64,000 nucleotides of DNA from Oscillospiraceae bacterium (GCA_009780345.1 WRAG01000005.1:2377-66376), one strand, 5' to 3'; shown: positions 30,458 through 54,303, counted from the first letter of the stretch. Numbers and translations are program-made. The notes: a model not told the origin generated them from the letters alone.

Positions 30458-30501
30458 ATCCTTTTCTCCTTTTTAATATGTAATTTTTAATTATGTTACT
30501 G

Positions 30502-33467: not shown

Positions 33468-33497
33468 TTGTATATTTGTTGAACTTTGTGTTATAAT
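33468..33497 (+). promoter_or_regulatory. Sigma-A promoter (P1) just outside the left inverted repeat. It currently points antisense into the recombinase gene.
   Basis: TTGTAT, an 18-nt spacer, then TGtTATAAT (extended -10). No plus-strand gene lies downstream. Confidence 0.45.
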
Positions 33498-33527
33498 GAA
33501 ATATAGGGTAAATTGTCGGCACAAATG

Positions 33528-33558
33528 TTTCACAAAATTCGCAATTTTGCGAAAAGTA
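33528..33558. repeat. Left arm of the inverted repeat flanking the recombinase cassette
   Basis: AAATTCGCAATTTTGCGAAAAGTA (33535-33558) is the exact reverse complement of 34946-34969. With the extension the match is 31/34. The core is TTCGCAA-TT-TTGCGAA. Confidence 0.8.
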
Positions 33559-33596
33559 ACGTTCAAACCATTGATAATGCTATATTTTGCGCTCCC

Positions 33597-33627
33597 GATT
33601 TGACGGCTTATTGACGGACTAAAAATT
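33597..33627. promoter_or_regulatory. Direct TTGACGG repeats (candidate arm-type recombinase binding sites), 3' side of int
   Basis: gatTTGACGGcttaTTGACGGactaaaaatt resembles gattTTGACGGtaaatTTGACGGcttaaaaatt at 34769-34801 in the same orientation. Confidence 0.4.
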
Positions 33628-33643
33628 TTCGGGAGTTTATTAA

Positions 33644-34750: not shown

Positions 34751-34768
34751 TTTATCATCTCCTTTGTT

Positions 34769-34801
34769 GATTTTGACGGTAAATTTGACGGCTTAAAAAT
34801 T
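34769..34801. promoter_or_regulatory. Direct TTGACGG repeats (candidate arm-type sites), 5' side of int
   Basis: See 33597-33627. The two TTGACGG copies are 12 bp apart and begin 19 bp upstream of the int start codon. Confidence 0.4.
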
Positions 34802-34883
34802 CACAAATTGTTGTAATTCTAGTCAAATTAATGTAATTGTTGAACATTGTAATAAAAATGATTGCTAAATGCAAATTTTTTTC

Positions 34884-34912
34884 TTGACATTGTGAATAAA
34901 ACGTGTTATACT
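34884..34912 (+). promoter_or_regulatory. Strong sigma-A promoter (P2) inside the cassette, firing outward through the right inverted repeat
   Basis: TTGACA, a 17-nt spacer, then TATACT preceded by TGt (extended -10). Confidence 0.5.
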
Positions 34913-34945
34913 TATATTCGTTTATGTGATATGGGGGTCAAAAAC

Positions 34946-34976
34946 TACTTTTCGCAAAATTGCGAATTTCACGAAA
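34946..34976. repeat. Right arm of the inverted repeat flanking the recombinase cassette
   Basis: TACTTTTCGCAAAATTGCGAATTT (34946-34969) is the reverse complement of 33535-33558. The central dinucleotide is AA here and TT on the left, so the copies are truly inverted. Confidence 0.8.
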
Positions 34977-35008
34977 AGGCAACTGCTACAATTTAATAAT
35001 GATATATC

Positions 35009-35050
35009 AAAAGGTTTTTTGGAGACTTCTTCAAAAAGCCTTTTATTTTT
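35009..35050 (+). terminator. AT-rich hairpin plus T-run about 130 nt downstream of P2
   Basis: aaaaggtttttt-N12-aaaaagcctttt followed by attttt. Confidence 0.35.
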
Positions 35051-35142
35051 GTAATTTAATCATATTAACATTATAATCTAAAAATATTTCGCAAATAATG
35101 CCCTGATTTAATCAAATTTCATTCACAAAACTACATCCCCTC

Positions 35143-35171
35143 TTGCAAAATGCTTATAAATGTGATATAAT
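35143..35171 (+). promoter_or_regulatory. Own promoter (P3) of the MalT/LuxR regulator gene
   Basis: TTGCAA, a 17-nt spacer, then TATAAT with TGa (extended -10), 48 nt upstream of the ATG at 35219. Confidence 0.45.
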
Positions 35172-35218
35172 ATAGGCATAAAATATAATGTAGTTATCAT
35201 AACAAGGAGGATGTGGCT

Positions 35219-37762: not shown

Positions 37763-37888
37763 ATAAAGGTTAGATAACTAATGATTCGACTTGTTTGATA
37801 ACAAAAAATACAACAGAAATTTAGCAATTGCACTTTTTCAAAAAAGTTGGACAAAAGTTGGACGTTTCGATAATTTTAAGATAAAAAC

Positions 37889-37920
37889 AAGGGTTTCGCT
37901 TTTTGCGAAACCCTTATTTT
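37889..37920 (+). terminator. Rho-independent terminator, bidirectional in appearance, between the regulator gene and ssrA
   Basis: aagggtttcgc-ttttt-gcgaaaccctt followed by atttt. Confidence 0.6.
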
Positions 37921-37925
37921 ATAGA

Positions 37926-38273
37926 TGGTGGAGATGACGGGAGTTGAACCCGTGTCCGAAAATACATTCCCTATTGGCGCTACGAGCGTAGTTTATTGTT
38001 TAAATTCCCCTCAATATCACACAATAAACAAAGCAATATATCAGGTAGCCTCTGGTTCATGGGAAGATCGAGACACTTCTTCCTCACGTTCACCGCTAAA
38101 TTTGACGCCCACCCTCATCCCGCGGTTCGGATAAGTTAGGACGGCTACCTAATTAGGCAGCGTAAGCTAAATTTTTGTTAGCGTTTAATTTAAGTTTGGT
38201 CGCAGATTTAGGTGTTGCCCGACACCGCTCGCTCCCCTAAGTTCAATATTCCCGTCGAAACCATTTCATCCCC
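37926..38273 (-). ncRNA. ssrA: tmRNA (SsrA)
   Basis: The minus strand starts GGGGATGAAATGGTTTCGACGGG and ends GGACACGGGTTCAACTCCCGTCATCTCCACCA, a tRNA-Ala-like acceptor/T-arm with an encoded CCA. The internal tag frame is ...GCT AAC AAA AAT TTA GCT TAC GCT GCC TAA (..ANKNLAYAA-stop). smpB lies 570 bp upstream on the same strand. Confidence 0.9.
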
Positions 38274-38282
38274 GTCTTTTGC

Positions 38283-38650
38283 GCCTGCGGGCGCAACTCT
38301 TTTCGGGTCCGTCCCGAGGGCATGCGTCCTGCCGGACGGGCGATAAGGGCTCTGCCCTTACGGTAGGTTTCAGACAATCAAACTTCGTCAAAGTACGACT
38401 CGTTTTCTTGGGAAACCCTCAAGGGCGAACCATTAGCGAAATCAAGATTTCGATGGTTCAGCCTCAATCCCGGTCGCCTATGATCGCAAACGCCCGACTC
38501 GCTTCGCTTACTGGATAATTCGACTACGATTTTGCAAAAATCAGCAAAATCAAGTCTCATTTACAAAAAACGCGATTTGCGCCAAAGCCGGCGACAAAAA
38601 ACATAGATAACCGCATTCGCGGAAAAAATACCGAGTGCGAACACCGTTTT
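38283..38650. repeat. Intergenic mosaic repeat, family A copy 1
   Basis: It shares ordered blocks with 45716-46035 and 48722-48900: GTCCTGCCGGACGGGCG.TAAG.GCTCTGCCCTTACGGTAGGTTTCA; CTTGGGAAACCCTCAAGG.CGAACC.TTAGC; GGTTCAGCC.CAATCCCGGTCGCCTATG; CGCGATTTGCGCCAAAGCCGGCGACA.AAAAAC; CCGCATTCGCGGAAA. Confidence 0.7.
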
Positions 38651-38660
38651 AGTCTACTGC

Positions 38661-38843
38661 CTACCCCTTATCAATCATCGGTTTGCCATCGCTGTCGAGC
38701 AGCGGCGTCAATCCGCCGCCATAACCTGCTTGACTAAACAAATAATGTATGCCTGTATGTTTATCGCGAAGAATCATCGTCCCAATCGCCATACCATGAG
38801 ATTCCTTTGTCACTATTTCAAACCTTTTGTCTTTTTTACTCAC
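38661..38843 (-). CDS. Small conserved protein (DUF6440-like)
   Basis: [55 protein letters not shown]. The GTG start overlaps the smpB stop. The family assignment is from memory only. Confidence 0.5.
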
Positions 38844-39304
38844 CTAATCCGCTCCTTCATTACCCGCTCCATCTTTCGTTTGGCATCTCTTTCCGCCGTC
38901 GTATGCCGTTTGTCGTAGTTTTTCTTTCCTCTACACAGCCCAATCTCCAATTTCACCTTTGAACCAAGAAAATAAACTTCCAACGGAATAAGCGAATAGC
39001 CCTCCTGCTGCGTCAACCCAATCAGCTTGTTAATCTCCCGCCGATGAAGCAGCAACTTCCGCGTCCGAAGCGGATCTTTGTTAAAAATATTCCCCTTTTC
39101 GTAAGGGCTGATATGCATACCAATCAGCATTGCCTCGCCGGTTTTGCAAGAAATATAACTATCCTTTAAGTTCACCTTTTTATCGCGAATAGACTTCACT
39201 TCGGTTCCCGCAAGCGCGATTCCCGCCTCATATTTGTCCTCGACAAAATAATCGTGATACGCTTTTCGGTTGGTGGCAATTATTCGTTTTTGATTTTGTT
39301 CCAT
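38840..39304 (-). CDS. smpB: SsrA-binding protein SmpB
   Basis: [32 protein letters not shown]....[33 protein letters not shown]...[31 protein letters not shown]. Confidence 0.9.
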
Positions 39305-39676
39305 AATTTCTTCCTTTTTGCGCCAATAGGCGCGGGGTTTTGCGCGGGCGCGCGCGACGCGTCAAGGACCAGTCCTTGACAATCCAGCAAGTTTTTGCGC
39401 GTCAAAAACTTGACTAAAACCGTCGCCCTCCCCGCCACGACCCACGCACAAAACGCGCGGGTGCCCCGTTTGGCGGAACCGCGGGCGAAAGTTAGTACAA
39501 ACATAACACTTTAACCAAACAATATCTCGCGCTTTTAGGCGCGGGCTGCTCTCGAACGAGCGCAGTGCTGTATCTCGTTACTTTTCCACGAACGCAGTTC
39601 GCTTCTTAACAAACACCCGTCACGCAGGGCGGGTGTTTTGAAACGAAATCCGCGGAGGGTGTTTCAGAGCTTCGCC
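39305..39676. repeat. Intergenic mosaic repeat, family B copy 1
   Basis: 39361-39427 (GTCAAGGACCAGTCCTTGACAATCCAGCAAGTTTTTGCGCGTCAAAAACTTGAC..) matches 47150-47215. ATCTCGCGCTTTTAGGCGCGGG occurs at 39523 and 47291. The terminal CCGCGGAGGGT..TTCGCCCTA block also lies next to secA. Confidence 0.7.
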
Positions 39677-41062
39677 CTAAAACTGAATCCTCTCCCTTAA
39701 ATAATTAACCAAATCTTCCATCTTTATTCGCTCTTGCTCCATACTGTCGCGATGACGCACGGTAACCGCGCCGTCTTCCTGGCTATCAAAATCGTAAGTT
39801 ATGCAAAACGGCGTTCCGATTTCGTCTTGGCGTCGATAACGTTTCCCGATACTTCCCGCCTCGTCATATTCGCACATAAATTCTTTGTTGAGCGTCTCGA
39901 AAACCTTGAAAGCACCTTCCGAAAGCTTCTTCGACAACGGCAAAACCGCCGCCTTAATCGGCGCAAGCGCCGGATGCAAACGTAACACCGTTCGGCTGTC
40001 GTCACCTTCCAATTGCTCCTCGTCATACGCGTCAACCAAAAACGCAAGCGCGACTCTGTCCGCGCCAAGCGACGGCTCAACACAATACGGAATGTATCGC
40101 TCGTTGGTTTCCGGGTCGATGTACTCCATTTTCTCGCCCGAATGCTCGCTGTGCTGTTTCAGGTCGAAATCAGTTCGGTCGGCGATTCCCCAAAGTTCGC
40201 CCCAGCCGAACGGGAACAAAAATTCGATGTCGGTCGTCGCCTTGCTGTAATGCGACAGCTCTTCCGCCGCATGGGCGCGCATTTTTATGTTTTCCGGCTT
40301 AATTCCAAGGTCAATCAGCCAGTTTTGGCAGAATTTTTCCCAATAATCGAACCATTCCAAGTCGGTTCCCGGCGCGCAGAAGAACTCAAGTTCAAGTTGC
40401 TCGAACTCGCGCGTTCTGAACACAAATTGCCCCGGCGTAATCTCGTTTCGGAACGATTTTCCGACCTGCGCAATTCCGAACGGAATTTTTTTGCGCATCG
40501 AACGCTGCACATTTTTAAAGTTCACAAATATTCCTTGCGCCGTTTCGGGACGGAGGAAAAGTTCGCTTTGACTGTCCTCGGTTACGCCTTGGAACGTCTT
40601 AAACATCAAGTTAAACTTGCGAATATCGGTAAAATTTTGCTTTTTACAACTCGGGCAAACGACGTTATTGTCCCTGATAAATTCCATCATTTTCTCGTTG
40701 CTCCAACCGTCCGCGCTCTCGTGCGTGATGTCTTCAATCAGTTTATCCGCGCGGTGACGGGTTTTACACTCCTTGCAATCCATAAGCGGGTCAGCGAATC
40801 CGCCAACGTGGCCGCTTGCAACCCAAACTTGCGGGTTCATCAAAATCGCCGCGTCCAATCCAACGTTGTACGGACATTCTTGCACAAACTTTTTCCACCA
40901 CGCACGTTTGACGTTATTTTTAAACTCAACCCCCAAAGGTCCATAGTCCCAAGTGTTAGACAGCCCGCCATATATCTCCGAACCGGCAAACACAAACCCG
41001 CGCCCCTTACAAAGCGCGACAATTTTATCCATAGTTTTTTCTGTATTAATCATTGATATCAT
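39677..41062 (-). CDS. glyQS: Glycine--tRNA ligase (class II, alpha2 type)
   Basis: [50 protein letters not shown]..., [25 protein letters not shown] and [14 protein letters not shown]. Confidence 0.9.
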
Positions 41063-41120
41063 TCCTTTTAAAATTATATTCGGTTAAGTATACCACTTTA
41101 ACTAAAATATGTCAAGCGAG

Positions 41121-41150
41121 TAAAACAAAAACCGCCTTTCGGCGGTTTCT
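41121..41150 (-). terminator. Rho-independent terminator after the 254-aa gene
   Basis: On the minus strand, AACCGCC-GAAA-GGCGGTT is followed by TTTTGTTTT. Confidence 0.6.
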
Positions 41151-41171
41151 GGTTGTATGATATGCGAAATA

Positions 41172-41936
41172 TTAGTCAACTAATACATAGCTAAACGTCA
41201 AACCGGGAACTTGATTGCTTGTTATCGTAAATATGTCATTTTCGATAGTATAGCTCCAACTTTCGGTCATAATACCGCCTGTTATATTCATCATTATATG
41301 ACCCGCTTCCGGAATCGACCATTCGAAGTTCTCCATCATCCCCGGTATGCCGCGCGTTCCCGTGCCATCTGCATTGAACGTGTATACATACTCAGTCGCG
41401 CTATCCCAAGCCCATGAAGTGTCAAGTAACTGATGCCCCGCAGGAATTCCTTCAACAAATTCCGTGCCGAAATCTCCAAAACCAAAACCTCCAAGCATTT
41501 CGGCAATAAGCGCGCCGAAATCCATCTCGTTAAACAAGTCCATCATCTCGTCCCAATCAACACCCTGAAGCTCGCCCATAATTTCGTTCCAGCTTACGTC
41601 AAGTCCCATTGCTTCAAACATTGACTCATATATAGGTCGAAACATAACCATTAATTGCTCCATCAGGTGAGGCTGGCTCAACAATACCGTGTTCGTCTCT
41701 TCATCGAAATCAACGTCAACGCCTAACGCTTCCGCGATTGCGCGAACCGGCAAAAACGTTCTGCCGTCTACAATAAACGGCGTCATATCTTCGTCAAAAT
41801 TTTGAACTTCGCCATTTACGCTAACTTGAACGCCAAAAAACACCTCACGCATTACGCCGCTGCTTGCAAAAACCGCTGTCAACAGCATAACGCAAGTTAA
41901 AATTCCCGCTATGTAACCTTTAATACCGTTTTTCAT
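41172..41936 (-). CDS. Secreted stalk-domain (CuAO-N-like) protein with a C-terminal beta-rich domain
   Basis: A signal/TM segment is followed by VSVNGEVQNFDEDMTPFIVDGRTFLPVRAIAEALGVDVDFDEETNTVLL. The C-terminal ..YTFNADGTGTRGIPGMMENFEWS.. is paralogous to the next gene. Confidence 0.6.
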   Translation of the reverse strand: MKNGIKGYIAGILTCVMLLTAVFASSGVMREVFFGVQVSVNGEVQNFDEDMTPFIVDGRTFLPVRAIAEALGVDVDFDEETNTVLLSQPHLMEQLMVMFRPIYESMFEAMGLDVSWNEIMGELQGVDWDEMMDLFNEMDFGALIAEMLGGFGFGDFGTEFVEGIPAGHQLLDTSWAWDSATEYVYTFNADGTGTRGIPGMMENFEWSIPEAGHIMMNITGGIMTESWSYTIENDIFTITSNQVPGLTFSYVLVD

Positions 41937-41985
41937 TTAAATTTCCTCCTATTATTTTAAATTTAATTTTTTATAATCAACAATA

Positions 41986-42810
41986 TTAATCAGCTCTCAT
42001 AAAATCCTGCGGGAATCCCGGAGTTGTCATACTCTCCAAAGTAAGCACATTTCCATCTTCGCTTATAGAATATCTGTGTTGCCAGGCAAACTCCCAACCG
42101 GCTCCAATCATATCCATCAACAAATAACCATCCGCAGATGTCATCCATGTGAAATCCTGCATAAGCGCAGAAATGCCGCGGCTTCCTGTCATATCAGCGT
42201 TAAAAAACACTCTATAATTGCCTTCAAAATCACCTAATAACGGAACATACCAATACCATTCGCCAACTAACACGCCTATAGAATCATTGCCTTCTCCGCT
42301 TGCAGGCGGTTCCGTTGCCGGCACATCACCTGTGCTTAAAATAACAGTTTGCGTGTCAACGTTCCATTCAACGTTTACGCCAAAGCTTTCCGCAACCGCG
42401 CGCGCCGGAACAAGCGTGCGGTTATCAATAATCAACGGCGGAACATCAAGTTCAAAATCTTGACTTGACGAAAACACGTCAGGGCGAGGTTCGTTTGTCG
42501 GCATTCCAATCCACAAATAAAATGTTTCAACCGTCATGATATTACTTCCGACTTGAAGCGTAACCACCGTTCTATGAACCGAAGTTTGTTCAGCGACAAT
42601 GGTTTGCGTATAATTGTCAAAATCAACTTCCGCGCCAAGCGCTTCAAAAATCGCGCGCAACGGAACCATTGTGCGATTGTCGATAATCTGCGGCGGAACG
42701 TCGAAATCAATTTGCACACCATCTAACGTAACGCTAATGTTCGCAAACGCCGCCGGAACAATTGCGAAAACAACTAATATTGCCAAAACTCCACTTAAAA
42801 TCTTTTTCAT
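41986..42810 (-). CDS. Secreted protein with two stalk (CuAO-N-like) domains, paralogue of 41172-41936
   Basis: The stalk domains are VTLDGVQIDFDVPPQIIDNRTMVPLRAIFEALGAEVDFD and FELDVPPLIIDNRTLVPARAVAESFGVNVEWN. The C-terminus reads ..FFNADMTGSRGISALMQDFTWM.. Confidence 0.6.
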   Translation of the reverse strand: MKKILSGVLAILVVFAIVPAAFANISVTLDGVQIDFDVPPQIIDNRTMVPLRAIFEALGAEVDFDNYTQTIVAEQTSVHRTVVTLQVGSNIMTVETFYLWIGMPTNEPRPDVFSSSQDFELDVPPLIIDNRTLVPARAVAESFGVNVEWNVDTQTVILSTGDVPATEPPASGEGNDSIGVLVGEWYWYVPLLGDFEGNYRVFFNADMTGSRGISALMQDFTWMTSADGYLLMDMIGAGWEFAWQHRYSISEDGNVLTLESMTTPGFPQDFMRAD

Positions 42811-42849
42811 TTATATCTCCTCCTCTAATTTTTTTGCCTTTTGATACTA

Positions 42850-43205
42850 ACATATCTATACTGAAATTGCAAGATATTTTAAAAAGATTTCCAAGGGAAT
42901 GACGGGTATCTACCTCAGGGTGAACCCTGAGCTCGCGCGCCATAAGGCACGCGTTCCGAGGCAAGCCTCGGAGTAATTACCCGGCTGTCGGCACAAAAAA
43001 GCCCTTGCATTTGAGACTTCGTTTGCGTGTTTTTTCGCAAGCGGTAGCCGGTAACGGCGGCTCGCGCTTGCGCGTAGCAATTACATTACGCCGTTTTGAC
43101 GCGTATTTTGCGTCCAAAGTGTCGGGGCGTAAGATTCGCTAAGCGAATCCACAGCCATCTACCAAGCAAGCATTTTTGTTACTCGAATAAATCCCTTGGA
43201 AACCG
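42850..43205. repeat. Hairpin-rich intergenic mosaic region
   Basis: It contains CCGGTAACGGCGGCTCGCGCTTGCGCGTAGCAATTAC, whose reverse complement recurs near 53250-53290 (GGTAATTGCCACGCGCTAAAGCGCGGGCTACCGTTACCG). Many short GC stems are present. Confidence 0.5.
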
Positions 43206-43209
43206 TGTG

Positions 43210-44202
43210 TTATTTATACCTATCAATATCGCCGAGCCCTATTCCCTCATGAAGCGAAATATTAATCCCGTTCGCCACAACGGCGGCAATATCATCAATA
43301 TCCGAATCTATATCCTTCGGCGCAACAATCATATCACCCACAATCGGTGAGATAACCTTTTTTATCAGCTCATACCTATCTTCCCGCCTCATCGAGTCTA
43401 TAAACGCAAATCCCGCGACTTTATCCGAACTGGTATGTTCCAATTCGTCCCGCAAAAGGGATAAAACTAGCTCAATACTATCATCCGCAATGGTCGCCGC
43501 GTCAACAACGGTCGGAACTCCAACCGCAATCACCGGAACCCCCAACGTCTTTTCGTTAAGCGCCATTCGTTTGTTTCCAATTCCCGAACCGGGCGTAATT
43601 CCTGTGTCCGCAATCTGTATGGTGGTGTTAATCCGCTCCATATTTCGTGAGCAAAGCGCGTCAATGGCGATTACCATAGCGGGTTTAACCCGCTCGACCA
43701 ACCCAAGCGTAATCTCGCTCGTTTCAACTCCGGTAAGCCCAAGTACGCCGGGCGAAATGGCGCAAACAGGGCGAACGCCGTCTTGCACTTCCTCCGGCAT
43801 ATGCTCTAAAAGGTGGCGCGTGACCATAACCTCCTCAACAACTTTCGGTCCGAGTGAATCAGCGGTTATATTCCAATTCCCAAGACCGACCACCAATACC
43901 GTATCGCCCGCTTTCAGGCGAATAATCCGCGCAAGTTCCCGCGCAACGGCGCGGCAGATAGCCTCATAAACTTTCTGTTCATGCGACATATGCCGCGGAA
44001 TTTCAAGGGTGATGTAATTCCCTTTTTCCTTGCCAAGCGCGTCCGACGCGTCGTCAGAATCAATTCTCACCCGCGTAATTTTTATACTGTCCTCAACAAC
44101 TTCGTCCTCTACCCGAATCCCGGGAATACTTTCATTCACCTCGGAACTGTTAATCAATATATCATGCGCCTCTATTGCCAAATCCGTTCTGGAACTATAC
44201 AT
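43210..44202 (-). CDS. gpr: Germination protease (GPR endopeptidase)
   Basis: RTDLAIEAHD..., VLVVGLGNWNITADSLGPKVVEEVMVTRHL, VIAIDALCSRNMERINTTIQIADTGITPGSGIGNKR and LGVPVIAVGVPTVVDAATIA are collinear with Bacillus Gpr as I remember it. Confidence 0.85.
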   Translation of the reverse strand: MYSSRTDLAIEAHDILINSSEVNESIPGIRVEDEVVEDSIKITRVRIDSDDASDALGKEKGNYITLEIPRHMSHEQKVYEAICRAVARELARIIRLKAGDTVLVVGLGNWNITADSLGPKVVEEVMVTRHLLEHMPEEVQDGVRPVCAISPGVLGLTGVETSEITLGLVERVKPAMVIAIDALCSRNMERINTTIQIADTGITPGSGIGNKRMALNEKTLGVPVIAVGVPTVVDAATIADDSIELVLSLLRDELEHTSSDKVAGFAFIDSMRREDRYELIKKVISPIVGDMIVAPKDIDSDIDDIAAVVANGINISLHEGIGLGDIDRYK

Positions 44203-44396
44203 ATGCGTTCATCCTTTCACATATGTAAATCTTCCCAAAACACCGATTTTTTATTCATAATTCAGCGCTAATTCAACTCTGTAACGCAAATTTAATTTGA
44301 CAAAATATTACAAAATGCAGTATAATATAATTTAAGCAGAATTAAAAACGGCAAATAGCCGGATGGTTACGTTCACTTCCGAAAGGAGGTGATTTT

Positions 44397-44474
44397 ATGG
44401 AGATTGTATACATAGTTTCAATTACTATCGTGTCAATCATTGCGATACTCGCAATCAGAAATATAAAAAAGTAA
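44397..44474 (+). CDS. 25-aa hydrophobic micro-ORF
   Basis: GAAAGGAGGTG lies 6 nt before the ATG. The product is MEIVYIVSITIVSIIAILAIRNIKK, followed by the hairpin gtaaccgc-N15-gcggttac. Confidence 0.35.
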   Translation: MEIVYIVSITIVSIIAILAIRNIKK

Positions 44475-44591
44475 CCGCCCCTCGTCAAAAGTAGCGGTTA
44501 CTTAACTTGCGTACTTGGGCGTAACCGTTTAAGGTTCTGCCTTTTTATGTCTTTATTATACAACGATATTTCTAATTTGTCAAGGCTTTTC

Positions 44592-45713
44592 TCAATTTTC
44601 CCCCGCCGCTTTATAAAGCCGATTTCGAACCGCCGCCCACATTCCGTTTTCCGGAATTTTCGGCGCGTATATCAAATCAACCTCAAGCGTATCAAATTTG
44701 CGCAACTTTCCAAACAAATTCCGCGCGGCGGATTCAGCGTCGTTCACGCTTCCAAGCGATAGAACGTACTTAACTCCCACAAACTCGTCCAAATATTCGT
44801 CAAAAATCAGAACTCCAACTTTCCCGCCTTGATTCCTGATGTTTTCAGCGTTTTCTAAGATGTCGCATATTATAATTTTCGCGTTCGGCGCGTAATGTTT
44901 ATATTTCATGCCGGGCGAAGCGGGTTTATCGTTACTTTCTATTTTCGTAACTACATCTACCTGCCCAATCACCGCCTCGATTTCCTCACGACTCACGCCG
45001 CCGGGTCGAAGTATAATCGGAACTTCCCGCGTCATATCGATTACCGTGCTTTCCAGTCCAACGTCGCAGCTTCCGCCGTCAATAATCACGTCAACTTTTC
45101 CGAAAAGATCGTGTTTTACGTGTTCAAACGCCGTCGGGCTCGGCTTTCCCGAAACATTCGCGCTCGGCGCGGCAATCGGAACTCCCGCCGCGCGTATAAG
45201 CTCTAACGCAATCTCGTTCGCCGGCATACGCACCGCAACCGTGTCAAGACCCGCCGTAACTATGTCGGGGACACACGCTTGCCGCTTCAATATAAGCGTC
45301 AACGGCCCGCCCCAAAATTGATCCATCAACAGTTTCGCCGCCTCGCTAACTTCGCGCGCGACTTTGTAAACATCATCCCGTTCGGCAATATGCACTATCA
45401 GCGGATTATCGCTCGGGCGCCCCTTTGCGGCGAATATCTTCGCCACAGCCGCCTCGTCTAGCGCGTTCGCGCCCAATCCGTACACCGTTTCGGTCGGAAA
45501 CGCAACCGTCCCGCTGTTGCGGAGGATTTTCGCCGCATTTTTAATATCAAAATTACTTGAATATAAAATTTGCGTTTTCGAATACAAATTAGATTTATTA
45601 GATTTAACAAGCCAAACAATTAGAAGCACTATCAAAGATATGGGGATGCCATAGACTATAAAGAACAATCCAAAAAACATTACATTAGTTTCCATAGCTC
45701 CCATTTCAGTCAC
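44592..45713 (-). CDS. tsaC: L-threonylcarbamoyladenylate synthase (Sua5/YwlC/TsaC type) with an unusual N-terminal hydrophobic extension
   Basis: FPTETVYGLGANALDEAAVAKIFAAKGRPSDNPLIVHI, WGGPLTLIL, VAVRMP and a Sua5 C-terminal domain (ILRPGGVSREEIE) are present. The first ~45 aa (..FFGLFFIVYGIPISLIVLLIVWLV..) are not part of the usual family. Confidence 0.8.
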   Translation of the reverse strand: MTEMGAMETNVMFFGLFFIVYGIPISLIVLLIVWLVKSNKSNLYSKTQILYSSNFDIKNAAKILRNSGTVAFPTETVYGLGANALDEAAVAKIFAAKGRPSDNPLIVHIAERDDVYKVAREVSEAAKLLMDQFWGGPLTLILKRQACVPDIVTAGLDTVAVRMPANEIALELIRAAGVPIAAPSANVSGKPSPTAFEHVKHDLFGKVDVIIDGGSCDVGLESTVIDMTREVPIILRPGGVSREEIEAVIGQVDVVTKIESNDKPASPGMKYKHYAPNAKIIICDILENAENIRNQGGKVGVLIFDEYLDEFVGVKYVLSLGSVNDAESAARNLFGKLRKFDTLEVDLIYAPKIPENGMWAAVRNRLYKAAGEN

Positions 45714-45715
45714 TC

Positions 45716-46035
45716 CTTTTTTGCGCCGGCGGACGCGGGCTTTTTTGCCGCTGAGACGGCGAGCTTATGTCCTGCCGGACGGGCGGTAAGAGCTCTGCCC
45801 TTACGGTAGGTTTCAACCAATCGAGCGTCGGCAACGAACGCCTTGCTCTCTTGGGAAACCCTCAAGGACGAACCGTTAGCCAAAACAAGTTTTGGACGGT
45901 TCAGCCCCAATCCCGGTCGCCTATGGACGCAAACGCCAAAAAACGGCGATTTGCGCCAAAGCCGGCGACAGAAAAACATTGGTTAACGAGCCGCATTCGC
46001 GGAAAGATTAACAAGATAAAACACCGCGCACCGAC
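45716..46035. repeat. Intergenic mosaic repeat, family A copy 2
   Basis: Collinear with 38283-38650 (blocks listed there). Confidence 0.7.
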
Positions 46036-46040
46036 GCAAC

Positions 46041-47132
46041 TTATTCTTCTATTGTCTTCAACTTCTCCGCCTGATCGGTGGTAGTCAAAGCATCAATAAT
46101 CTCATCTATATCGCCGTTCATAATCGCTTCGATTTTATAAAGCGTCAAGCCGATTCGATGGTCGGTCACACGCCCCTGCGGAAAATTATAGGTGCGAATC
46201 CGCTCGCTTCGATCGCCCGTTCCGACTTGGCTCTTTCTATCCGCCGCAATGGACTCGCTCCGCTCCCGCTCGGCAACTTCATACAGCTTCGAGCGCAGCA
46301 TTTTCATCGCCGCATTCTTATTTTTGCCCTGCGACCGCTCGTCTTGACAAGCGACCACAATCCCGCTCGGAATATGCGTAATCCGAATCGCCGATTCGGT
46401 TTTGTTAACATGCTGTCCGCCCGCGCCGCCCGCACGGTAAGTATCAATCTTCAAATCCTCGGTATTTATGTCGATGTCCACTTCCTCAACCTCGGGAAGC
46501 ACAGCAACCGTAACGGTTGACGTATGAATTCGCCCCTGCGACTCGGTTTCGGGAACCCGCTGAACCCTATGAACGCCGCTTTCGAATTTCAATCGGCTAT
46601 ATGCGCCGTGACCGTTGATCTCAAAGCAAACTTCCTTAAATCCGCCGATTCCGATTTCGCTGGCGCTCAAAATTTCGGTTTTCCACCGACGACTATCGGC
46701 GTACATCGAATACATTCGAAACAAGCTGTTCGCGAACAACGCCGCCTCGTCACCGCCCGCACCGCCGCGAATCTCGACAATAACGTTTTTATCGTCGTTC
46801 GGATCTTTCGGAAGCAAAAGCACCTTCAACTCTTCTTCAAGCGTCTCAATATTGTCCCGCGCGGCGTAAAATTCTTCCTCTGCCATATCGCGGAAGTCCT
46901 TATCCTGCGAAGAATCGTCCATAATCTGACGACTCTCTTCCATAGTTTCAACGTTTTTCTTATACTCGCGATATTTCTCAACGACCGGCGAAATCGCCGA
47001 ATGCTCACGGCAAAGTTTTTGCCACACCTCTTGGTCGGCAATAACATCCGGATCGCTGATTTTTCGTGAAAGTTCCTCATACTGCGTTTCGATAAATGAT
47101 AATTTGTCAAACAATTTTTTCACCACTTTCAA
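46041..47132 (-). CDS. prfA: Peptide chain release factor 1
   Basis: A PET tripeptide context ([17 protein letters not shown]) and the GGQ motif ([35 protein letters not shown]) are present. Confidence 0.9.
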
Positions 47133-47572
47133 AAATTAAATTTCACTTTGTCAAGGACTAGCCCTTGACAATCCCACAAGTTTTTGCGCGCCAAAAACTT
47201 GATCAAAACCGCCGCGCTCATGCACGTGCTTAAAAACCAAGCACACATGGCGCGGAAGCAAGTACAAACAACTCGCCCCTACCACAAAACATCTCGCGCT
47301 TTTAGGCGCGGGTCGCTCTCAAATTGAAGCAGCGTTTGTACACACCAATCTTTCCGCGAACGCGGCTCGCTAACTTTTGTCGCCCTCATGCCAGACGGGG
47401 CACCCGCCCGACGCTTTTTGTCGGGAAGGGTCGGCGGCATAGCGGCGACGGTTTTGTAAAACTTTTGCCGTCAAAAGTTTTTTGGGGATTGACAAGGGTG
47501 TCAATACACCCTTGTCGTCCTGCCCTGACAAGGGCAAATGCAGCGGCGACTCGCTCTGAAAAAAGGTTCGCC
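47133..47572. repeat. Intergenic mosaic repeat, family B copy 2 (a composite of modules seen at 39305-39676 and 53524-53765)
   Basis: A 69-bp block at 47473-47541 is identical to 53655-53723. About 235 bp (47338-47575) is collinear with 53524-53765. The 5' part matches 39361-39427. Confidence 0.75.
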
Positions 47573-48683
47573 CTAAACGCCCTGCGCAGCAGCCTTCAAA
47601 TACGCATTAATAAACCCGTCCAAATCGCCGTCCATCACCGCGCCGGTGTTGCCCATTTCAAAATTTGTGCGATGGTCCTTGACCATATTATACGGATGAA
47701 AAACATACGACCGAATCTGACTTCCCCACCCGATTTCCATTTGAACGCCTTTGATATCCTCAATTTTCTCTTTTTGCTCCCGCTCGGCAATCTCAACAAG
47801 CTTAGATTTCAACATTTTCATAGCGGTATCACGATTTTTATGCTGCGACCGCTCGCTTTGGCAAGCAACAACAACCCCGCTCGGAATATGCGTAATCCGA
47901 ATCGCCGACTCGGTTTTGTTGACGTGCTGCCCACCCGCGCCGCTCGCGCGGTAGGTGTCAACCTTTAAATCCTCGGGATTGATATTGATTTCAATATCAT
48001 CATCAATCTCCGGCATAACGTCTACCGACGCGAACGACGTATGCCGCCGCCCTGATGAATCAAACGGGGAAATCCGCACCAATCGATGAACACCCTTTTC
48101 GCACCGCGCGTAACCATAAGCGTTCAGTCCTTCAACCTGAATGGTAACGCTCTTCACACCCGCTTCCTCGCCGTCGAGATAGTCAAGCGTCGTCACCTTA
48201 AACCCCCGACGTTCCGCCCAGCGCGTGTACATTCTAAGCAACATTTCACACCAATCTTGCGCCTCGGTTCCGCCCGCACCCGAATGAAGCGTAATAATCG
48301 CGCTATTCTTATCATACGCGCCTGTAAGCAGCGTTTCAAGCCGCATATTCTCCAAATCATCAGTCAATTTCCTAAATCCGGCTTTAACTTCAGGCAAAAC
48401 GCTCTCGTCACTTTCCTCAATTGCCAACAAAACAAGAGTGGAAATATCTTCCCACTCTGATTTAAGCGCGTCAAACCGCGCAACTTTATCTTTCAAACCT
48501 TTAATCTGTTGCATAACACGGCTCGCCGCTTCCATATCGTTGTAAAAATCCGATTGCATGGAAACCTCTTCAAGCCGCAACGTTTCCGCCTCAGTCGCTT
48601 CTATGTTAAAGTGAATCCCTCAAATCGTTAATTTCACTTTCCATTCCGTCGAGTTTTAGTCGAATATCGTTGAATTCCAGCAT
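47573..48683 (-). CDS. prfB: Peptide chain release factor 2, with a programmed +1 frameshift
   Basis: ORF0 is ATG(48683)...GAT TCA CTT TAA C. A +1 shift after CTT (48609-48611) continues as NIEATEAETLRLEEV... into the 335-aa track ORF. The SPF motif (RISPFDSSGRRHTS) and the GGQ motif are present. An SD-like GAGGGA lies 3 nt before CTT. Confidence 0.85.
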
Positions 48684-48721
48684 TTTTTCACTTCCTTGAA
48701 ATAATATTTCATTTTAAAACC

Positions 48722-49088
48722 CTTTTTCAGAGCGAGGCTCTGTGGGCATATGACCTGCCGGTCGGGCATTAAGGGCTCTACCCTTAATAATCCCGGTCGC
48801 CTGGCGGTCACAAACGCCAAAAACACGATTTGTGCCGCAAGCGGCGACAGAAAAACCGGGTTAGCGAACCGCGTTCGCGGAAAGATTAGTAAGATAAGCC
48901 GCCGCTCTCAACCATAATTTTGTGGTTAGAGAAGGGAGGCAGATTGCCGACCGCCTGATTTTCGTCAGCCCTTGAAAAATTTTTTGAAGCGAAGCGACAA
49001 AAAATTTTAAAATACCCCACTCCACCCGAGGCACTCCGCTTCAATGCAGTAGCCCCCCGCGCCCGCGGAGGGTCATAGGGCATTCGCC
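48722..49088. repeat. Intergenic mosaic repeat (short family A copy 3 plus additional modules)
   Basis: 48722-48900 has the family A blocks 1, 3, 4 and 5 but lacks the middle block. 49055-49091 carries CCGCGGAGGGT..TTCGCCCTA, as seen next to glyQS. Confidence 0.65.
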
Positions 49089-51863
49089 CTATTCCTCCTC
49101 TAACCCACAACACTTCTTATATTTCTTCCCGCTGCCACAGGGGCAAGGGTCATTCCGTCCAACTTTTTCTTTCTTCACAATCGGCTTTTTCTCCACCGTT
49201 TTATCGCTCGCGCCGCCAAAGCTAAGTCCCGCGCGCCCTGCAAACATAGGTCTTGCAACCGCTTTCCGCTCAATCTCGCTTTGCGGCTGCGCTTTAAATA
49301 TAAACCTAACGGTATCTTCCTTAATGTTATAAACCATTTCCTCGAACATATCCATGCCCTCGAACTTATATTCCACAACCGGATCTCGCTGCGCATAGGC
49401 GCGCAGGTTAATCCCCTGACGCAACTGCTCCATTCCGTCAATATGCGCCATCCATTTTTGGTCTACCATTCGAAGCAAGATAACCCGCTCAAGCTCCCGC
49501 ATATTTTCGCCGAATAACTCTTCTTTAGCATCATATTGGCGGTTTATAATTTCCATAATATTCTCACGCAACCACGCGCGGTCCATGTAATCCATCTCAT
49601 GCCCGCTGAATTTCAACTCGTCATCTTCAAAGGGCATAAATATAGTCTGCAAATGTTCACGCAATCCCACGAAATCCCAATCTTCCGCGTGTGACGCCTC
49701 GCCGGTGTAAATCTCAATGGCTTTATCAACTACAGACCCCGCCATATTAAGGATATTATCCCGCAAATTCTCGCCCTCAAGCACAGAATTCCGCTGTTTG
49801 TATATCATTTCACGCTGCTGATTATTCACATCGTCATACTGCAAAACATGCTTCCGAATATCAAAGTTTCGTCCCTCAACCCGCTTTTGCGCCGTCTCAA
49901 TAACGCCCGAAACCATGCGGCTTTCAATCGGCTCGTCGTCCGCGACTTTCAAAACATTCATAACGTTCGCGATTCTGTCCGACCCGAACAGACGCATCAA
50001 ATCGTCTTCCAACGATAGGTAAAATCTCGACGTACCTTTATCTCCTTGACGCCCCGCGCGCCCGCGAAGCTGATTATCAATCCGTCGGCTCTCGTGCCGT
50101 TCGGTTCCCATGATGTAAAGCCCGCCCGCTTCAAGCACCTTTTCAACATCCGGCGCGTTCGCGGCTTTATATTTCGCTTCAAGTTCACGAAATTTCGATC
50201 TCGCCTCCAAAATTTCGGCGTCGTCCGTTTCGCTGAACCCTGTTGATTGCGCGATTAACTCATCGCTGTAACCAAGCTTTGCCATTTCCTTTTTCGCCAT
50301 AAATTCGGCGTTTCCGCCAAGCACAATGTCGGTTCCACGCCCCGCCATATTAGTGGCGATTGTAACCGCGCCGCTTTTCCCCGCCTGCGCAACAATTTCC
50401 GCCTCTTTTTCATGGAATTTAGCGTTCAAAACCTCATGCTTAATCCCGCGGCGTTTAAGCATAGATGATAACTGCTCCGACTTCTCAATCGAAATGGTAC
50501 CAATCAAAACAGGCTGTCCTTTCTTGTGCGCCGCCTCAACTTCGTCAATCACCGCGTTAAATTTCGCAATCTCATTTTTATAGATAACATCCGCAAAATC
50601 CTCACGCGCAAGATCCTTGTTCGTCGGAATTACGATAACGTCCAGCTTGTAAATCTCTTGAAACTCGTCTTCTTCCGTCTGTGCCGTTCCCGTCATGCCC
50701 GACAGTTTCTCATACAACCTAAAATAATTCTGAAACGTAATGGTCGCAAGGGTTCTGCTCTCGTTTTCAACTTTTACTCGCTCTTTCGCCTCAATCGCCT
50801 GGTGCAAACCGTCGCTGTACCGTCGCCCGAACATCATACGCCCGGTAAACTCGTCAACAATAACGATTTGACCGTCTTTCACGACATAATCAACGTCTTT
50901 TTTCATGAATCCGTTCGCCTTAATCGCCTGATTGATATGATGCGAAAGCGTCAAGTTCTCAGGATCGGTAAGATTTTCAACATTAAACGCGGCTTCCGCT
51001 TTTTTGACGCCCCTAGGCGTAAGTGTCGCGCTTCGCGACTTTTCGTCAACAACATAATCAACGTCGGCATGAACTTCCTCATCGTCAGCCTTCGAATCGG
51101 TTTCAACCACCTTTTTATGCTTCAAAGTTTTCGCGAATCTATCCGCCTGCTCGTATAAAACGTTCGCTTTATCGCCCTGCCCGGAAATAATAAGCGGCGT
51201 TCTCGCCTCGTCCACCAAAATGCTGTCAACCTCATCGACAATCGCGTAATAATGCCCGCGCTGAACCTTTTGATCCTTATAAATTACCATATTATCACGA
51301 AGATAGTCAAATCCCATCTCGTTATTGGTTCCGTAAGTAATATCGGCGCCATAATTCGCCTTCCGCTCTTCCGGTTTTATATCATGGATTATCAATCCAA
51401 CGCTTAGTCCAAGGAAAGTATAAACTTTCCCCATCCACTCACTATCACGCTTAGCAAGGTAGTCATTCACCGTTACAACGTGAACTCCTCTGCCGGTCAA
51501 CGCGTTAAGATACGCCGGCAAAGTTGCGACCAACGTTTTACCTTCTCCCGTTTTCATCTCGGCAATTCTGCCTTGATGCAAAACAATCCCGCCGATAATT
51601 TGCACAAAGAAGTGCTTCATACCAAGCGCGCGCCACGACGCCTCGCGGCACACCGCGAACGCCTCAGGCAATATATCGTCAAGAGTTTCGCCCGCGTGCA
51701 ACCGCGCTTTAAACGCAGAGGTCATGGCACGCAATTCGCTGTCCGATTTTTGTTCCATAACCGATTCAAACTCCATAACTTTATTAGCGATAGGAATAAT
51801 CCGCTTTAATTCCCTATCACTATATGTTCCTACAAATTTTTCAACCATACTTTTGATACTCAT
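49089..51863 (-). CDS. secA: Preprotein translocase ATPase SecA
   Basis: [49 protein letters not shown] and a C-terminal zinc finger ([14 protein letters not shown]) are present. Confidence 0.95.
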
Positions 51864-52049
51864 ATCGTCGCAACACCCTTCACTTATTCGTTTTGTGGCA
51901 AAAGGCGCCCCAAAAGCTCATTAGCTTCGGGGTTGCTCCTCTTTCCCAAAAAATCAGAGCTTAAGCTCAAACTTTTTGGGAGCCCTAACCGCTAGCGCGG
52001 TTTATGCCTCCAACTTTAGTAGTATACCACGTTTGGAAAAATAATGCAA

Positions 52050-52078
52050 CAAAAAAGTGGGCATAGCCCACTTTTGTT
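52050..52078 (-). terminator. Rho-independent terminator after abrB
   Basis: On the minus strand, AAAGTGGGC-TAT-GCCCACTTT is followed by TTTGTTG. Confidence 0.6.
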
Positions 52079-52091
52079 TACAATCTCTTAA

Positions 52092-52331
52092 TTATTGTTT
52101 CAACTCTTTTTTACATCCGCCGCAAATGTTCTTCCCTTTAAATTGGGTAACATTGTTTCCGTTTCCACAAAATACACAAGTGGGTTCATACTTTTTAAGA
52201 ACAACGCAATTCCCTTCCACAAAAATTTCAAGCGCGTCCTTTTCAGAAACATCAAGCGTTCTTCTAAGCTCGATAGGTAGAACAACACGTCCCAAGCTGT
52301 CCACTTTTCTAACAATCCCCGTAGACTTCAT
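52092..52331 (-). CDS. abrB: AbrB-family transition-state regulator with a Cys-rich C-terminus
   Basis: AGGAGG is the RBS. The product MKSTGIVRKVDSLGRVVLPIELRRTLDVSEKDALEIFVEG..VVLKKY is nearly identical in pattern to the AbrB N-domain. The tail is CVFCG...CGGC. The longer track ORF has no support. Confidence 0.85.
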   Translation of the reverse strand: MKSTGIVRKVDSLGRVVLPIELRRTLDVSEKDALEIFVEGNCVVLKKYEPTCVFCGNGNNVTQFKGKNICGGCKKELKQ

Positions 52332-52559
52332 ACAATCTTTCCTCCTAATAAAATGGCAATATTTTTTTAATTCCTGATCTATTCTACCATAGTATTGCCA
52401 AAAAGTCAACAGGGAAAAAGCTAATTTTTTACATATTATATCAAATATTCCCTTTTTATATTGGAATAGCTTGGTTTGGTTGATAATATTTATTAATGTA
52501 AACAAATTTGTATCAAATTGCATGATTTCACGCAAACCGAAAGGAGGCGTTGTATATTG

Positions 52560-53141
52560 ATGAATTATATCTGGGCGGGACTTATCTTATTATCGTTCGC
52601 AACCGCAGTATTTACAGGCAATCTAGACGCCACAACCGCCGCCGCGTTCGACGGAACCCGCGCGGCAATCGAAATGTGCATTTCTCTCCTCGGAATTATG
52701 GCGCTTTGGACCGGCATAATGAAAATCGGCGAAAAATCTGGGCTAATCGAAAAATTCGCGAAATTGCTATCTCCGCTAACCCGCATACTTTTCCCGAAAC
52801 TCAAAAAAAATTCCGCCGCAATGAACGCCATCGTAATGAATATGATGGCAAACATGCTCGGAATGAGTAACGCGGCAACTCCGCTGGGACTCAAAGCAAT
52901 GACCGAACTCGATAAACTCAACAACGGCTCAAAAGTCGCGTCAAACGAAATGGTCATGTTCGTTGTGATAAATACCGCGTCGATACAGCTTATTCCATCA
53001 ACGTTAATCGCGTTGCGTTTAAACGCAGGCTCGGCGAATCCCGGCGAAATTATCGTTCCGATATGGATTGCAAGCTTAGCGACACTCATCGTCGGCGTAA
53101 CCTGCGTGAAAATTTTTCAACGGATTAAACGAAGCACGTAG
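52560..53141 (+). CDS. spmA: Spore maturation protein A (nucleoside-recognition-domain membrane protein)
   Basis: GAAAGGAGG is the RBS. The product reads MNYIWAGLILLSFATAVFTG...IEMCISLLGIMALWTGIMKIGEKSGLIEKFAKLLSPL. Confidence 0.8.
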   Translation: MNYIWAGLILLSFATAVFTGNLDATTAAAFDGTRAAIEMCISLLGIMALWTGIMKIGEKSGLIEKFAKLLSPLTRILFPKLKKNSAAMNAIVMNMMANMLGMSNAATPLGLKAMTELDKLNNGSKVASNEMVMFVVINTASIQLIPSTLIALRLNAGSANPGEIIVPIWIASLATLIVGVTCVKIFQRIKRST

Positions 53142-53781
53142 GACGGCTTTTTTGCGTTGACAAGCGCGGCTTAAAACCATTTTAGGGTATGCTTAGGGCA
53201 TAACCGCCAAGGGTGTTGGAACGGCAAAAAGCGCCGTTGAAACGGTATAAGGTAATTGCCACGCGCTAAAGCGCGGGCTACCGTTACCGAACACCCTTAT
53301 CAATCCCCGAAAATTTTTTCACAAAAATGATGAAACTCCTCGCACAAGACGCTTCGGAGGGCTAAATCTCTAAGCATTAAACTGCTAAGAAATTTATGCC
53401 AACCTTGCGGCGCACACGCGCTATAGCGCTATCGTAAACGCGCCGCTAAAAGATGTGCAAACATCTACGTATTAGTCAAGTACTTACGGCGGCAAAAGCC
53501 GCAGTCTCACTGAAACTGTATTAGTACACACTAATCTTTCCGCGAATGCGGTTCGCCATACTTTTTCGAATTCATACGCCAGGCGGGGTACCCGTTCGTC
53601 GTTTTTTGACGAATGGGTCGACGGCGTTGAATGAGGTTTTGGTAAAACTTTTTTAAAAGTTTTTTGGGGATTGACAAGGGTGTCAATACACCCTTGTCGT
53701 CCTGCCCTGACAAGGGCAAATGCCACAGCGACTTCGCTGAAAAAAGGGTTCTAGGGTAACGCCCTAACGAAAGGAGCCACC
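53142..53781. repeat. Intergenic mosaic repeat block (family B copy 3 plus other modules) separating spmA from spmB
   Basis: 53524-53765 is collinear with 47338-47575, including a 69-bp identical block. 53250-53290 is the reverse complement of a module at 43055-43095. Confidence 0.75.
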
Positions 53782-54303
53782 ATGCAATACATATCCACTT
53801 TCGCCGTCCCAATCATGCTGTGCGGAATTATCTGTTACGGCTTATTTAAGCGCGTAAACGTATACGAAACCTTTATCGACGGCGCAATGGACGGAATCAA
53901 AAGTTTAGTCAAAATTATCGCGCCGCTCATCGGTTTAATGGTGTCCATTTCAGTTTTCCGCGCCTCGGGATTGCTTGATCTTTTCACTTACGCCCTAACT
54001 CCGGTAACTAACCTTATAAACATGCCGGGCGATATATTGCCCCTCGCCCTTCTTCGCCCCATTTCAGGAAGCGGCTCGCTCGCAATCGTCAGCGATATAT
54101 ACCAAACCGCCGGACCCGATTCAATCTCAGGCAGAATCGCGTCGGTCATGATGGGCGCAAGCGAAACCACATTCTATACTTTGACGGTATACTTTGGAAG
54201 CGTTGGAATCCGAAAAGTACGTCACACCTTAAAAGCCGCGCTCTTCTCCGATTTAACCGCGATTATCGCGTCGGTCATAGTCGTGCAACTTCTGCTACGC
54301 TAA
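53782..54303 (+). CDS. spmB: Spore maturation protein B
   Basis: MQYISTFAVPIMLCGIICYGLFKRVNVYETFIDGAMDGIKSLVKIIAPLIGLMVSISVFRASGLLD... GAAAGGAG is the RBS. Confidence 0.8.
   Translation: MQYISTFAVPIMLCGIICYGLFKRVNVYETFIDGAMDGIKSLVKIIAPLIGLMVSISVFRASGLLDLFTYALTPVTNLINMPGDILPLALLRPISGSGSLAIVSDIYQTAGPDSISGRIASVMMGASETTFYTLTVYFGSVGIRKVRHTLKAALFSDLTAIIASVIVVQLLLR

Follow-up and report, generated by a model that had tools for sequence, protein, structure and literature searches.

Systems of REP sequences and RAYT have been described mainly in Proteobacteria, and miniature elements derived from IS200/IS605 (PATE-type) move by a single-strand 'peel and paste' transposition. The association of REP, BIME and REPIN sequences with RAYT has been described (Nunvar, 2010, PMC2817692; Bertels and Rainey, 2011, PMC3116915), and REP hairpins are themselves the targets of IS1397/ISKpn1 and of IS110-family insertion sequences (Tobes and Pareja, 2006, PMC1525189). 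Here we describe the spacers between the housekeeping genes of a 64,000-nucleotide stretch of DNA from an Oscillospiraceae bacterium (GCA_009780345.1 WRAG01000005.1:2377-66376), called the window throughout, in which the spacers of secA-prfB-prfA-sua5, as well as those of spmA-spmB and smpB-ssrA, are enlarged to 0.3-0.6 kb by hairpin-rich repeats. These spacers are probably, with room left for doubt, built up in layers from non-autonomous mobile elements that are specific to the lineage and depend for their propagation on the folding of one strand. At least two kinds of element would make them up, a superfamily built around a hairpin called M1 and a set of small insert modules, X-a, X-b, Y, Z and C. 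Structured extragenic repeats are known as a broad kind; what is new is this lineage-specific family, not the principle.

Like REP, BIME and REPIN sequences, these repeats are high in copy number, strictly extragenic, hairpin-forming, arranged as mosaics in both orientations and free of target-site duplications; their structure is conserved over their sequence, and the copies lying within operons are able to act on mRNA. Unlike the REP/BIME palindromes of about 35 nt, they form multi-helix folds of 105-250 nt with conserved junction nucleotides, they grow by nesting inside hairpins and not as alternating arrays, and their host belongs to a Clostridia lineage. With the IS200/IS605-derived miniatures, they share the absence of terminal inverted repeats and of target duplication, exact insertion by a short target rich in T, and a reliance on hairpins of one strand. 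However, while IS200/IS605 elements have similar subterminal hairpins at their ends and typically show a replication-strand bias, the end domains of X are dissimilar, its hairpin 1 starts at the first base, no such bias was seen for X or M1, and no Y1 transposase was found in the sampled DNA. As with IS1397/ISKpn1, insertion occurs into loops or stems of other repeated palindromes and results in nested repeats, but those insertion sequences are autonomous, 1-1.5 kb long and equipped with a transposase gene, whereas X, Y, Z and C are non-coding and measure 70-130 nt. Finally, pneumococcal BOX, RUP and SPRITE and enterobacterial ERIC are comparable as modular 100-300 nt repeats of transcribed regions in Gram-positive or enteric genomes, with optional modules and strong predicted folds. 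In BOX it is the number of tandem boxB units that varies, whereas the optional blocks are here independent inserted elements, and a relationship by sequence is not to be expected.

The M1 superfamily and the nested element X

Some 3.8 kb of the 15.5 kb between ssrA and spmB (38274-53781) is non-coding (24%). An excess of non-coding DNA had been pointed out in an earlier note on this sequence and stands, while its figures of 4.0 kb and 26% come out slightly lower on recount. Modules that recur both within the window and elsewhere, in 30 or more further metagenome loci, account for 2.6 kb of this DNA, each window module being found 4-26 times in about 350 kb, and they tile the spacers up to a few bases from stop codons, ribosome-binding sites and the 5' end of the transfer-messenger RNA (tmRNA).

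The repeats had been sorted into two families, A and B. These are one superfamily around a common M1 hairpin (AATCTTTCCGCGAAYGCGG), which lies on the - strand in Family A and on the + strand in Family B. Read along the strand on which M1 is forward, an element starts with a head hairpin, U1 (CTCGCGC-TTTTAG-GCGCGGG) or U2 (GCGGC-AAAA-GCCGC), the two being interchangeable, and continues through a linker of about 30 nt to the M1 hairpin. A closing stem (GTCGCC/GGCGAC) then encloses a variable interior and is followed by the hairpins H4 (..AAGGG...CCCTT..) and H5, and the tail consists of short GC hairpins, each with an A-run after it. Among the A-type copies, 21 of 23 have the short form; the consensus fold of 21 distinct short A-type copies (M1-A) contains six covarying pairs, for example GC in 11 copies and AU in 9, or UA in 14 and CG in 7, with one position showing five pair types, and on the M1 strand G-U is found in 44 cells versus A-C in one. 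The exact M1 21-mer (TCTTTCCGCGAAYGCGGYTCG) occurs at 38 metagenome loci, where all copies are intergenic and lie amid ordinary housekeeping genes, except for one chance match inside an open reading frame (ORF).

The "middle block" of A1 and A2, the two longer Family A copies of the window, is a separate 105-nt element, X, of the subfamily X-b. The third copy, A3, had been taken for one lacking this block; it is instead the canonical short form, and it is A1 and A2 that hold nested insertions. X comprises the subfamilies X-a and X-b, which have a common architecture: the first part folds as a bulged hairpin and the second as a long hairpin with two G-A-rich internal loops. Across 27 copies, compensatory changes on both sides were found at 28 of the 35 base pairs, and 98.2% of the cells are paired, versus 78% after column shuffles and 31-47% with slid partners. 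Its unpaired motifs, the GCUAA bulge and the tandem G-A internal loops, are also conserved. Searching 355 kb of lineage DNA with a covariance model of X returned 41 matches.

Since the modules that host X are themselves repeated, their uninterrupted paralogues can be used as empty sites, and comparison of filled with paralogous empty sites showed that X is inserted exactly and without target-site duplication. Its termini, GGGAGTG.../...GTTGACNNC or GGCTGAAC.../...CTACCG, are not inverted repeats. X-b was found in the H4 hairpin of A-type elements (GGGATTGG^TAAGGGC, the caret standing for the insertion point), in the B-right hairpin (TTGA^CAAGGG) and in the loops of other X copies (CTT^TGATTTT, ACT^TGTTTT), its insertion words being TTGR^Y or CTT^T; no single fixed word common to all the sites emerged. 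X-a follows a T-run and occupies the T-rich loops of U1, U2, the A stem and X itself (e.g., GCGGCTTT^TGCCGCC), sometimes with a one-base difference. At three loci (L018, L016 and L004) the nesting is triple, with X within X within X; at another (L017) a reverse-complemented Y interrupts M1, and in the spmA-spmB spacer the loop of a B-right type hairpin is occupied by a C module.

Origin and possible role of the repeats

The host is a spore-forming Clostridia genome from an uncultured lineage, whose nearest counterparts among 185,579 species representatives, with a PrfA 76% identical, are metagenome-assembled genomes of uncultured Clostridia, Oscillospiraceae or Monoglobaceae. Eighty related species retain the order secA-prfB-prfA-sua5 with short spacers: prfB and prfA are a median of 18 nt apart (29 species) versus about 450 nt here, and the other gaps of the operon are likewise small. 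At the loci of these relatives, no similar DNA was found by BLASTN; the X covariance model had no match in 1.4 Mb from 80 related species, the M1 21-mer none in the 185,579 species representatives, and the M1, X-b and X-a patterns none in viral contigs. Judged by these comparisons, the operon was compact in its ancestral state and the repeats were inserted into it.

Strains of the lineage also differ in the elements they hold. In locus L002, whose smpB is 92% identical, B1 contains an X-a that is absent from the window (equivalent position ~39413-39416), and the segment from smpB to tmRNA (908-1567) has a gene for a 148-aa CGGC-domain protein and an unrelated 213-nt spacer where the window has the DUF6440 gene and A1. 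An array of about 400 nt homologous to 42995-43180 is present in L004, with a direct repeat of about 20 nt at its borders, and missing from the corresponding position of L040. An M1 element shared by L022 and L030 at orthologous positions has U2 as its head in the former and U1 in the latter, a swap which shows exchange between copies. A 385-nt difference between L016 and L036, considered as another repeat, proved to be an AT-rich small gene.

It is hardly credible that this organisation is a metagenome assembly artefact or a chimera. Contigs do often end within the repeats, M1 lying at most 400 nt from a contig end in 12 of the 38 loci, as expected since repeats break assemblies. The last 90 nt of L003 (959-1048), which belong to the X-b of the A1 locus, match A2 of the window at 87 of 90 positions and A1 at 80 of 90; either the copies have undergone gene conversion or the contig end is chimeric. 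However, an independent ENA assembly is 99.7% identical across 28840-48151 of the window, four spacers included, JGI metagenome contigs contain the same smpB and, in several samples, the same architecture between intact genes, and orthologous spacers are collinear with 88-96% identity. These JGI samples may be metagenomes of termite guts, though a literature search for their identifiers gave nothing.

Nested exact insertion, dispersal over 38 M1 loci, restriction to one lineage and presence or absence between strains together make a mobile origin the best supported, in agreement with one of two alternatives in the earlier note, that the repeats may be a proliferating non-autonomous mobile family. 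The further copies and the covariation by which that note was to be judged were both found, in the 38 loci and the 41 model matches on the one hand and in the six M1-A pairs and 28 of 35 X pairs on the other. According to this proposal, the insert modules would enter resident elements exactly, at T-rich loops or fixed stem positions and with no duplication of the target site, and every insertion would supply fresh hairpins as further targets, so that short ancestral spacers would have grown into mosaics of 0.3-0.6 kb. Mobilisation would occur in trans through an enzyme recognising folded single-stranded DNA (or RNA), possibly of the HUH/Y1, RAYT or IS200-like type, or through another structure-guided recombinase; the lack of terminal inverted repeats and target-site duplications, together with the hairpin dependence, argues for a structure-recognising and probably single-strand mechanism, HUH/Y1 or similar. 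The host may tolerate the arrays since they would leave read-through intact, and may have put them to secondary use as hairpin barriers or leader hairpins in mRNAs, as in REP/BIME, the copies being afterwards kept, or homogenised, faster than neutral drift would predict.

A trivial explanation by a known RNA family can be set aside. With Rfam 15, only the tmRNA and one tRNA of the window reached threshold, and permissive searches of the window (E <= 5) and of L004, L016 and L018 (E <= 1) gave no match on the repeats. Weak matches fell off the repeats (CRISPR-DR60 at 44415, E 0.67; an L20 leader, E 3.1), and a weak match to permuted tmRNA overlapped the real tmRNA. The likeness to BIME, BOX and REP mosaics drawn in the earlier note holds for the extragenic, hairpin-rich and modular make-up in both orientations and does not extend to the family definitions: the elements are REP/BIME-like or MITE-like in the broad sense, but the definitions of those families do not fit them. 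A classical MITE is contradicted by X, which has neither terminal inverted repeats nor a target-site duplication, and similar end hairpins of the IS200/IS605 type by the different architectures of its two domains. The boxA-boxB(n)-boxC organisation of BOX does not apply either, each optional block being one nested element at a defined position and not a unit of a tandem series.

A genuine REP/BIME (REPIN) system, in which short palindromes and inverted doublets are moved by a RAYT Y1 transposase encoded elsewhere, would account for repeats that are extragenic, high in copy number (38 M1 loci, intergenic bar the one chance match, and 41 X matches), hairpin-based and devoid of target duplications. 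It would also fit the sequences left and right of M1, which show inverted similarity in 9 of 35 spacers and direct similarity in one, and the short GC palindromes (GCGCC-N4-GGCGC) found as outward-facing ends. We nevertheless regard it as distinctly unlikely. In place of a palindrome of 20-40 nt, the conserved units are multi-helix folds of 105 nt (X) and about 140-250 nt (M1 elements); the palindromes of the tails, although short, have no 5' tetranucleotide in common, the conserved one of REP being absent; RAYT was not found in the sampled DNA (140 flanking ORFs, best 25 families listed); and REP/RAYT systems are mainly proteobacterial. A model treating whole spacers as quasi-palindromes was also considered and fits only about a quarter of them.

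Several observations weigh against a purely mobile account. Strain-to-strain identity is 85-94% in aligned non-coding DNA versus 73-81% at third codon positions (for the M1-A element of L022 and L030, about 96% versus 74%), and broken pairs are rare, at 1.8% of cells; decaying junk copies should look otherwise. This high conservation, together with the rarity of broken pairs, suggests that each copy is under selection for its fold or that gene conversion homogenises the copies. A strong replication-strand bias was not seen (M1 16 to 11, X 10 to 6, by a GC-skew proxy on a small sample), and no recurrent transposase, recombinase or mobile-element family appeared among the best 25 families listed for the 140 flanking ORFs. 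In addition, two alignment columns supply 31 of the 44 G-U cells of M1-A, and the loci were sampled by the presence of M1, with strains mixed.

Part of this evidence would be explained if the elements were primarily functional RNA, either cis-acting parts of operon transcripts or paralogous small structured RNAs, whose spread is a by-product of recombination. The roles proposed in cis are leader hairpins near the ribosome-binding site, exonuclease barriers, partial terminators and RNase III sites formed from inverted M1 copies. The very strong covariation with nearly no broken pairs, the conserved GCUAA bulge and tandem G-A loops of X and the conservation of orthologous copies beyond third codon positions all speak for this possibility, as does the orientation of the tails. 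Modules made of a GC hairpin and an A-run point toward gene starts in 25 cases near ribosome-binding sites and are antisense in 3, while after stop codons they point away from the gene in 15 cases versus 1; in smpB, sua5, spmB and numerous further genes, this orientation places hairpins 5-8 nt ahead of the Shine-Dalgarno sequence. Inverted M1 copies flank prfB and prfA (47344-47374 with 48860-48890 and 45982-46009) and are 93-94% complementary over 28-31 nt, so that a polycistronic transcript could pair long-range around these two genes.

A primarily functional RNA is nonetheless rather unlikely. The M1 bodies and X are antisense to neighbouring genes as often as sense: relative to both flanking genes, M1 is in the same orientation at 14 loci and in the opposite one at 12, with 3 divergent and no convergent cases, an even distribution which argues against an obligatory sense-RNA role, and X is opposite to its downstream gene in 20 cases and in the same orientation in 7. 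No conserved sigma-70-like promoter (-35/-10) was found in the aligned element heads, and the folded-strand hairpins precede A-runs, not U-runs. The nesting of X in X in X is foreign to the evolution of functional RNAs, G-U pairs beyond the fixed columns represent only some 1.5% of cells, a low share for an RNA family, no match to Rfam was obtained, and related species manage without these elements.

More specific RNA-based candidates were rejected. An element-borne sigma-70 promoter or intrinsic terminator has no conserved signal, independent small-RNA genes would lack a conserved -35/-10 and have folded-strand hairpins ending in A-runs, and a shared promoter or leader of the downstream genes disagrees with a body orientation of 50/50. 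Family A as a duplicated tmRNA or leader RNA is inconsistent with its dispersal and with its absence between smpB and ssrA in L002. By analogy with REP/BIME, a role as leader hairpins, exonuclease barriers or partial terminators in the RNA of the host is plausible, given the conservation of the copies and the orientation of the tails. The other alternative of the earlier note, sense-strand elements acting in RNA processing, stability or attenuation between presumably co-transcribed genes, may likewise apply. It is also conceivable, though unlikely, that X, and perhaps the whole M1 superfamily, is an undescribed class of small structured mobile elements, a two-domain fold of 105 nt integrating exactly and with no target duplication into hairpins of a defined shape, the copies of which are selected in place as host RNA modules of operon transcripts; propagation might then involve a new structure-guided recombination mechanism or the RNA or DNA fold of X itself.

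The spacers and their neighbouring genes

All the repeat pairings listed in the earlier note were regained by self-BLASTN of the window and with a repeat finder. By self-BLASTN, A1 and A2 are 86% identical between 38326-38494 and 45769-45937 and 81% between 38564-38646 and 45937-46026, and A2 and A3 80% between 45909-46027 and 48789-48905. In Family B, 39361-39430 matches 47150-47219 (87%), 39489-39556 matches 47256-47323 (76%), and 47335-47566 matches 53521-53747 (82%), including a 69-nt block that is identical (47473-47541 and 53655-53723). The short module AATCTTTCCGCGAAYGCGGNTCG has four exact matches, for a chance expectation of none, on the + strand at 47347 and 53533 and on the - strand at 45987-46009 and 48865-48887; its occurrence in both orientations was thus borne out at these four sites, and a fifth copy claimed at 38610 has more than three mismatches. 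The C module (CGGTAACGG...GCAATTAC) was found, as had been described, in both orientations, exactly at 53252-53289 (-) and with a loop 2 nt shorter at ~43050-43086, and CCTTTTTTCAGAGCGAG likewise has one - copy (47550-47566) and one + copy (48720-48736) in the window.

A1 (38274-38654, -), a long-form element of the M1 superfamily with other-locus coverage of up to 30 matches, spans the gap from the DUF6440 gene to the tmRNA 5' end (38273). Its M1 hairpin (~38606-38632) is degenerate, and its last tail hairpin (38279-38296) stops 3-5 nt before the tmRNA. Nested in its H4 stem, at the site GGGATTGA^TAAGGGC, is an X-b (38359-38463, -) recognised by the covariance model R1 (109.3 bits) and by empty-site comparison, with a single-sequence fold of z = -3.7, and the T-rich loop of its long bulged stem holds a 72-nt Y module (GTAAATGAG...GCGAGTCGGG; 38493-38564, -), of which 11 copies are known from 9 loci. 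A2 (45715-46033, -) fills the prfA-sua5 spacer, with M1 at 45987-46009, a tail hairpin and A-run immediately upstream of the sua5 ribosome-binding site, and an X-b (45802-45906, -; R1 model 112.5 bits; fold z = -4.3) at GGGATTGG^TAAGGGC, also supported by empty-site comparison. The short element A3 (48715-48909, -), supported by the consensus fold with covariation and by its single-sequence fold (z = -3.2), has M1 at 48865-48887, a body extending to 48751 and a tail that runs into the prfB ribosome-binding site. Between secA and A3 lies a low-copy module (48910-49063, no strand assigned) with 4 copies in the sampled loci.

B1 (39313-39626, +) is composed of tail hairpins directed toward the smpB start (39320-39357), B-left palindromes (39361-39415), a U1 hairpin (39526-39545) and a degenerate M1 (~39581-39603). 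The entire prfB-prfA spacer is occupied by B2 (47133-47572, +), which contains B-left palindromes (47150-47215), U1 (47293-47312), M1 (47347-47374), the GTCGCC...GGCGAC body (47379-47446), the B-right hairpin block (47473-47541) and a tail (47545-47566); over 56 nt, its left arm and the reverse complement of its right arm have a similarity of about 75%. B3 (53149-53767, +) fills the spmA-spmB spacer with a left inverted hairpin into which a C module is nested, splitting it (53222-53292), a Z module (53328-53402), a U2 head (53404-53530), M1 (53533-53555), the body and the B-right hairpin block (53655-53723), and its tail runs into the spmB ribosome-binding site. An array of lower-copy modules at 42995-43180 (no strand assigned), with the end motif CCAAGCAAGCATTTTT, includes the C module at ~43050-43086.

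On the - strand, the genes of this region are those of tmRNA (ssrA, 37926-38273), a 60-aa DUF6440 protein between smpB and A1 (38661-38843), smpB (38840-39304), glyQS (39677-41053), two Cu_amine_oxidN1 proteins (41172-41936 and 41986-42810), gpr (43210-44202), sua5 (44592-45704), prfA (46041-47114), prfB (47573-48683), secA (49089-51863) and an AbrB/MazE-like protein (52092-52535). The only flanking genes on the + strand are spmA (52518-53141) and spmB (53782-54303), and Family A therefore reads - and Family B +. The genes spmA and spmB normally form an adjacent pair; here the two, each with a Gate domain, are 640 nt of repeats apart. The AbrB/MazE-like ORF overlaps the predicted start of spmA by 18 nt, and the start codon of one or the other has therefore probably been misassigned. 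In prfB (48590-48683, -), the usual +1 frameshift is needed; the stop of the shift site is UAA (CTT TAA C, the canonical site being CTT TGA C), and a Shine-Dalgarno-like GAGGGA lies a few bases upstream.

The 389-nt gpr-sua5 spacer (44203-44591) is free of repeat modules and has perfect TTGACA/TATAAT promoter-like sites on opposite strands, at 44297-44326 (+) and 44583-44555 (-). Adjoining the 3' end of the tmRNA, positions 1-37900 of the window have the look of an acquired island, with no repeat modules, a tyrosine integrase (33644-34750, -), a serine recombinase (4606-5817, -), a LuxR/MalT-type regulator, many SLH, RCC1 and Big_2 surface proteins and a GC content ranging from 0.33 to 0.54. 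A different repeat, made of three tandem units of about 42 nt (GGCGGCATTCTGCCGCCCGCAAATTATATATCTGTTTCGGCA), was found at 61945-62102, upstream of a gene starting at 62113, and has an inverted partner about 600 nt downstream (62570-62637). The GGCGGCAAAATGCCGCC hairpin is also present upstream of a gene in L023.

Implications for the lineage

The repeats fragment the metagenome assemblies of this lineage and could be used as strain markers. They provide a clean, covariation-supported fold of 105 nt and an example of exact, duplication-free insertion into hairpins, and the responsible enzyme, once identified, could have mechanistic or practical interest. For the host itself, these spacers indicate that a compact essential operon can take up 0.3-0.6 kb of structured DNA per gap and still function, a finding relevant to the tolerance or exploitation of selfish repeats in operon polarity, mRNA processing and translation initiation.

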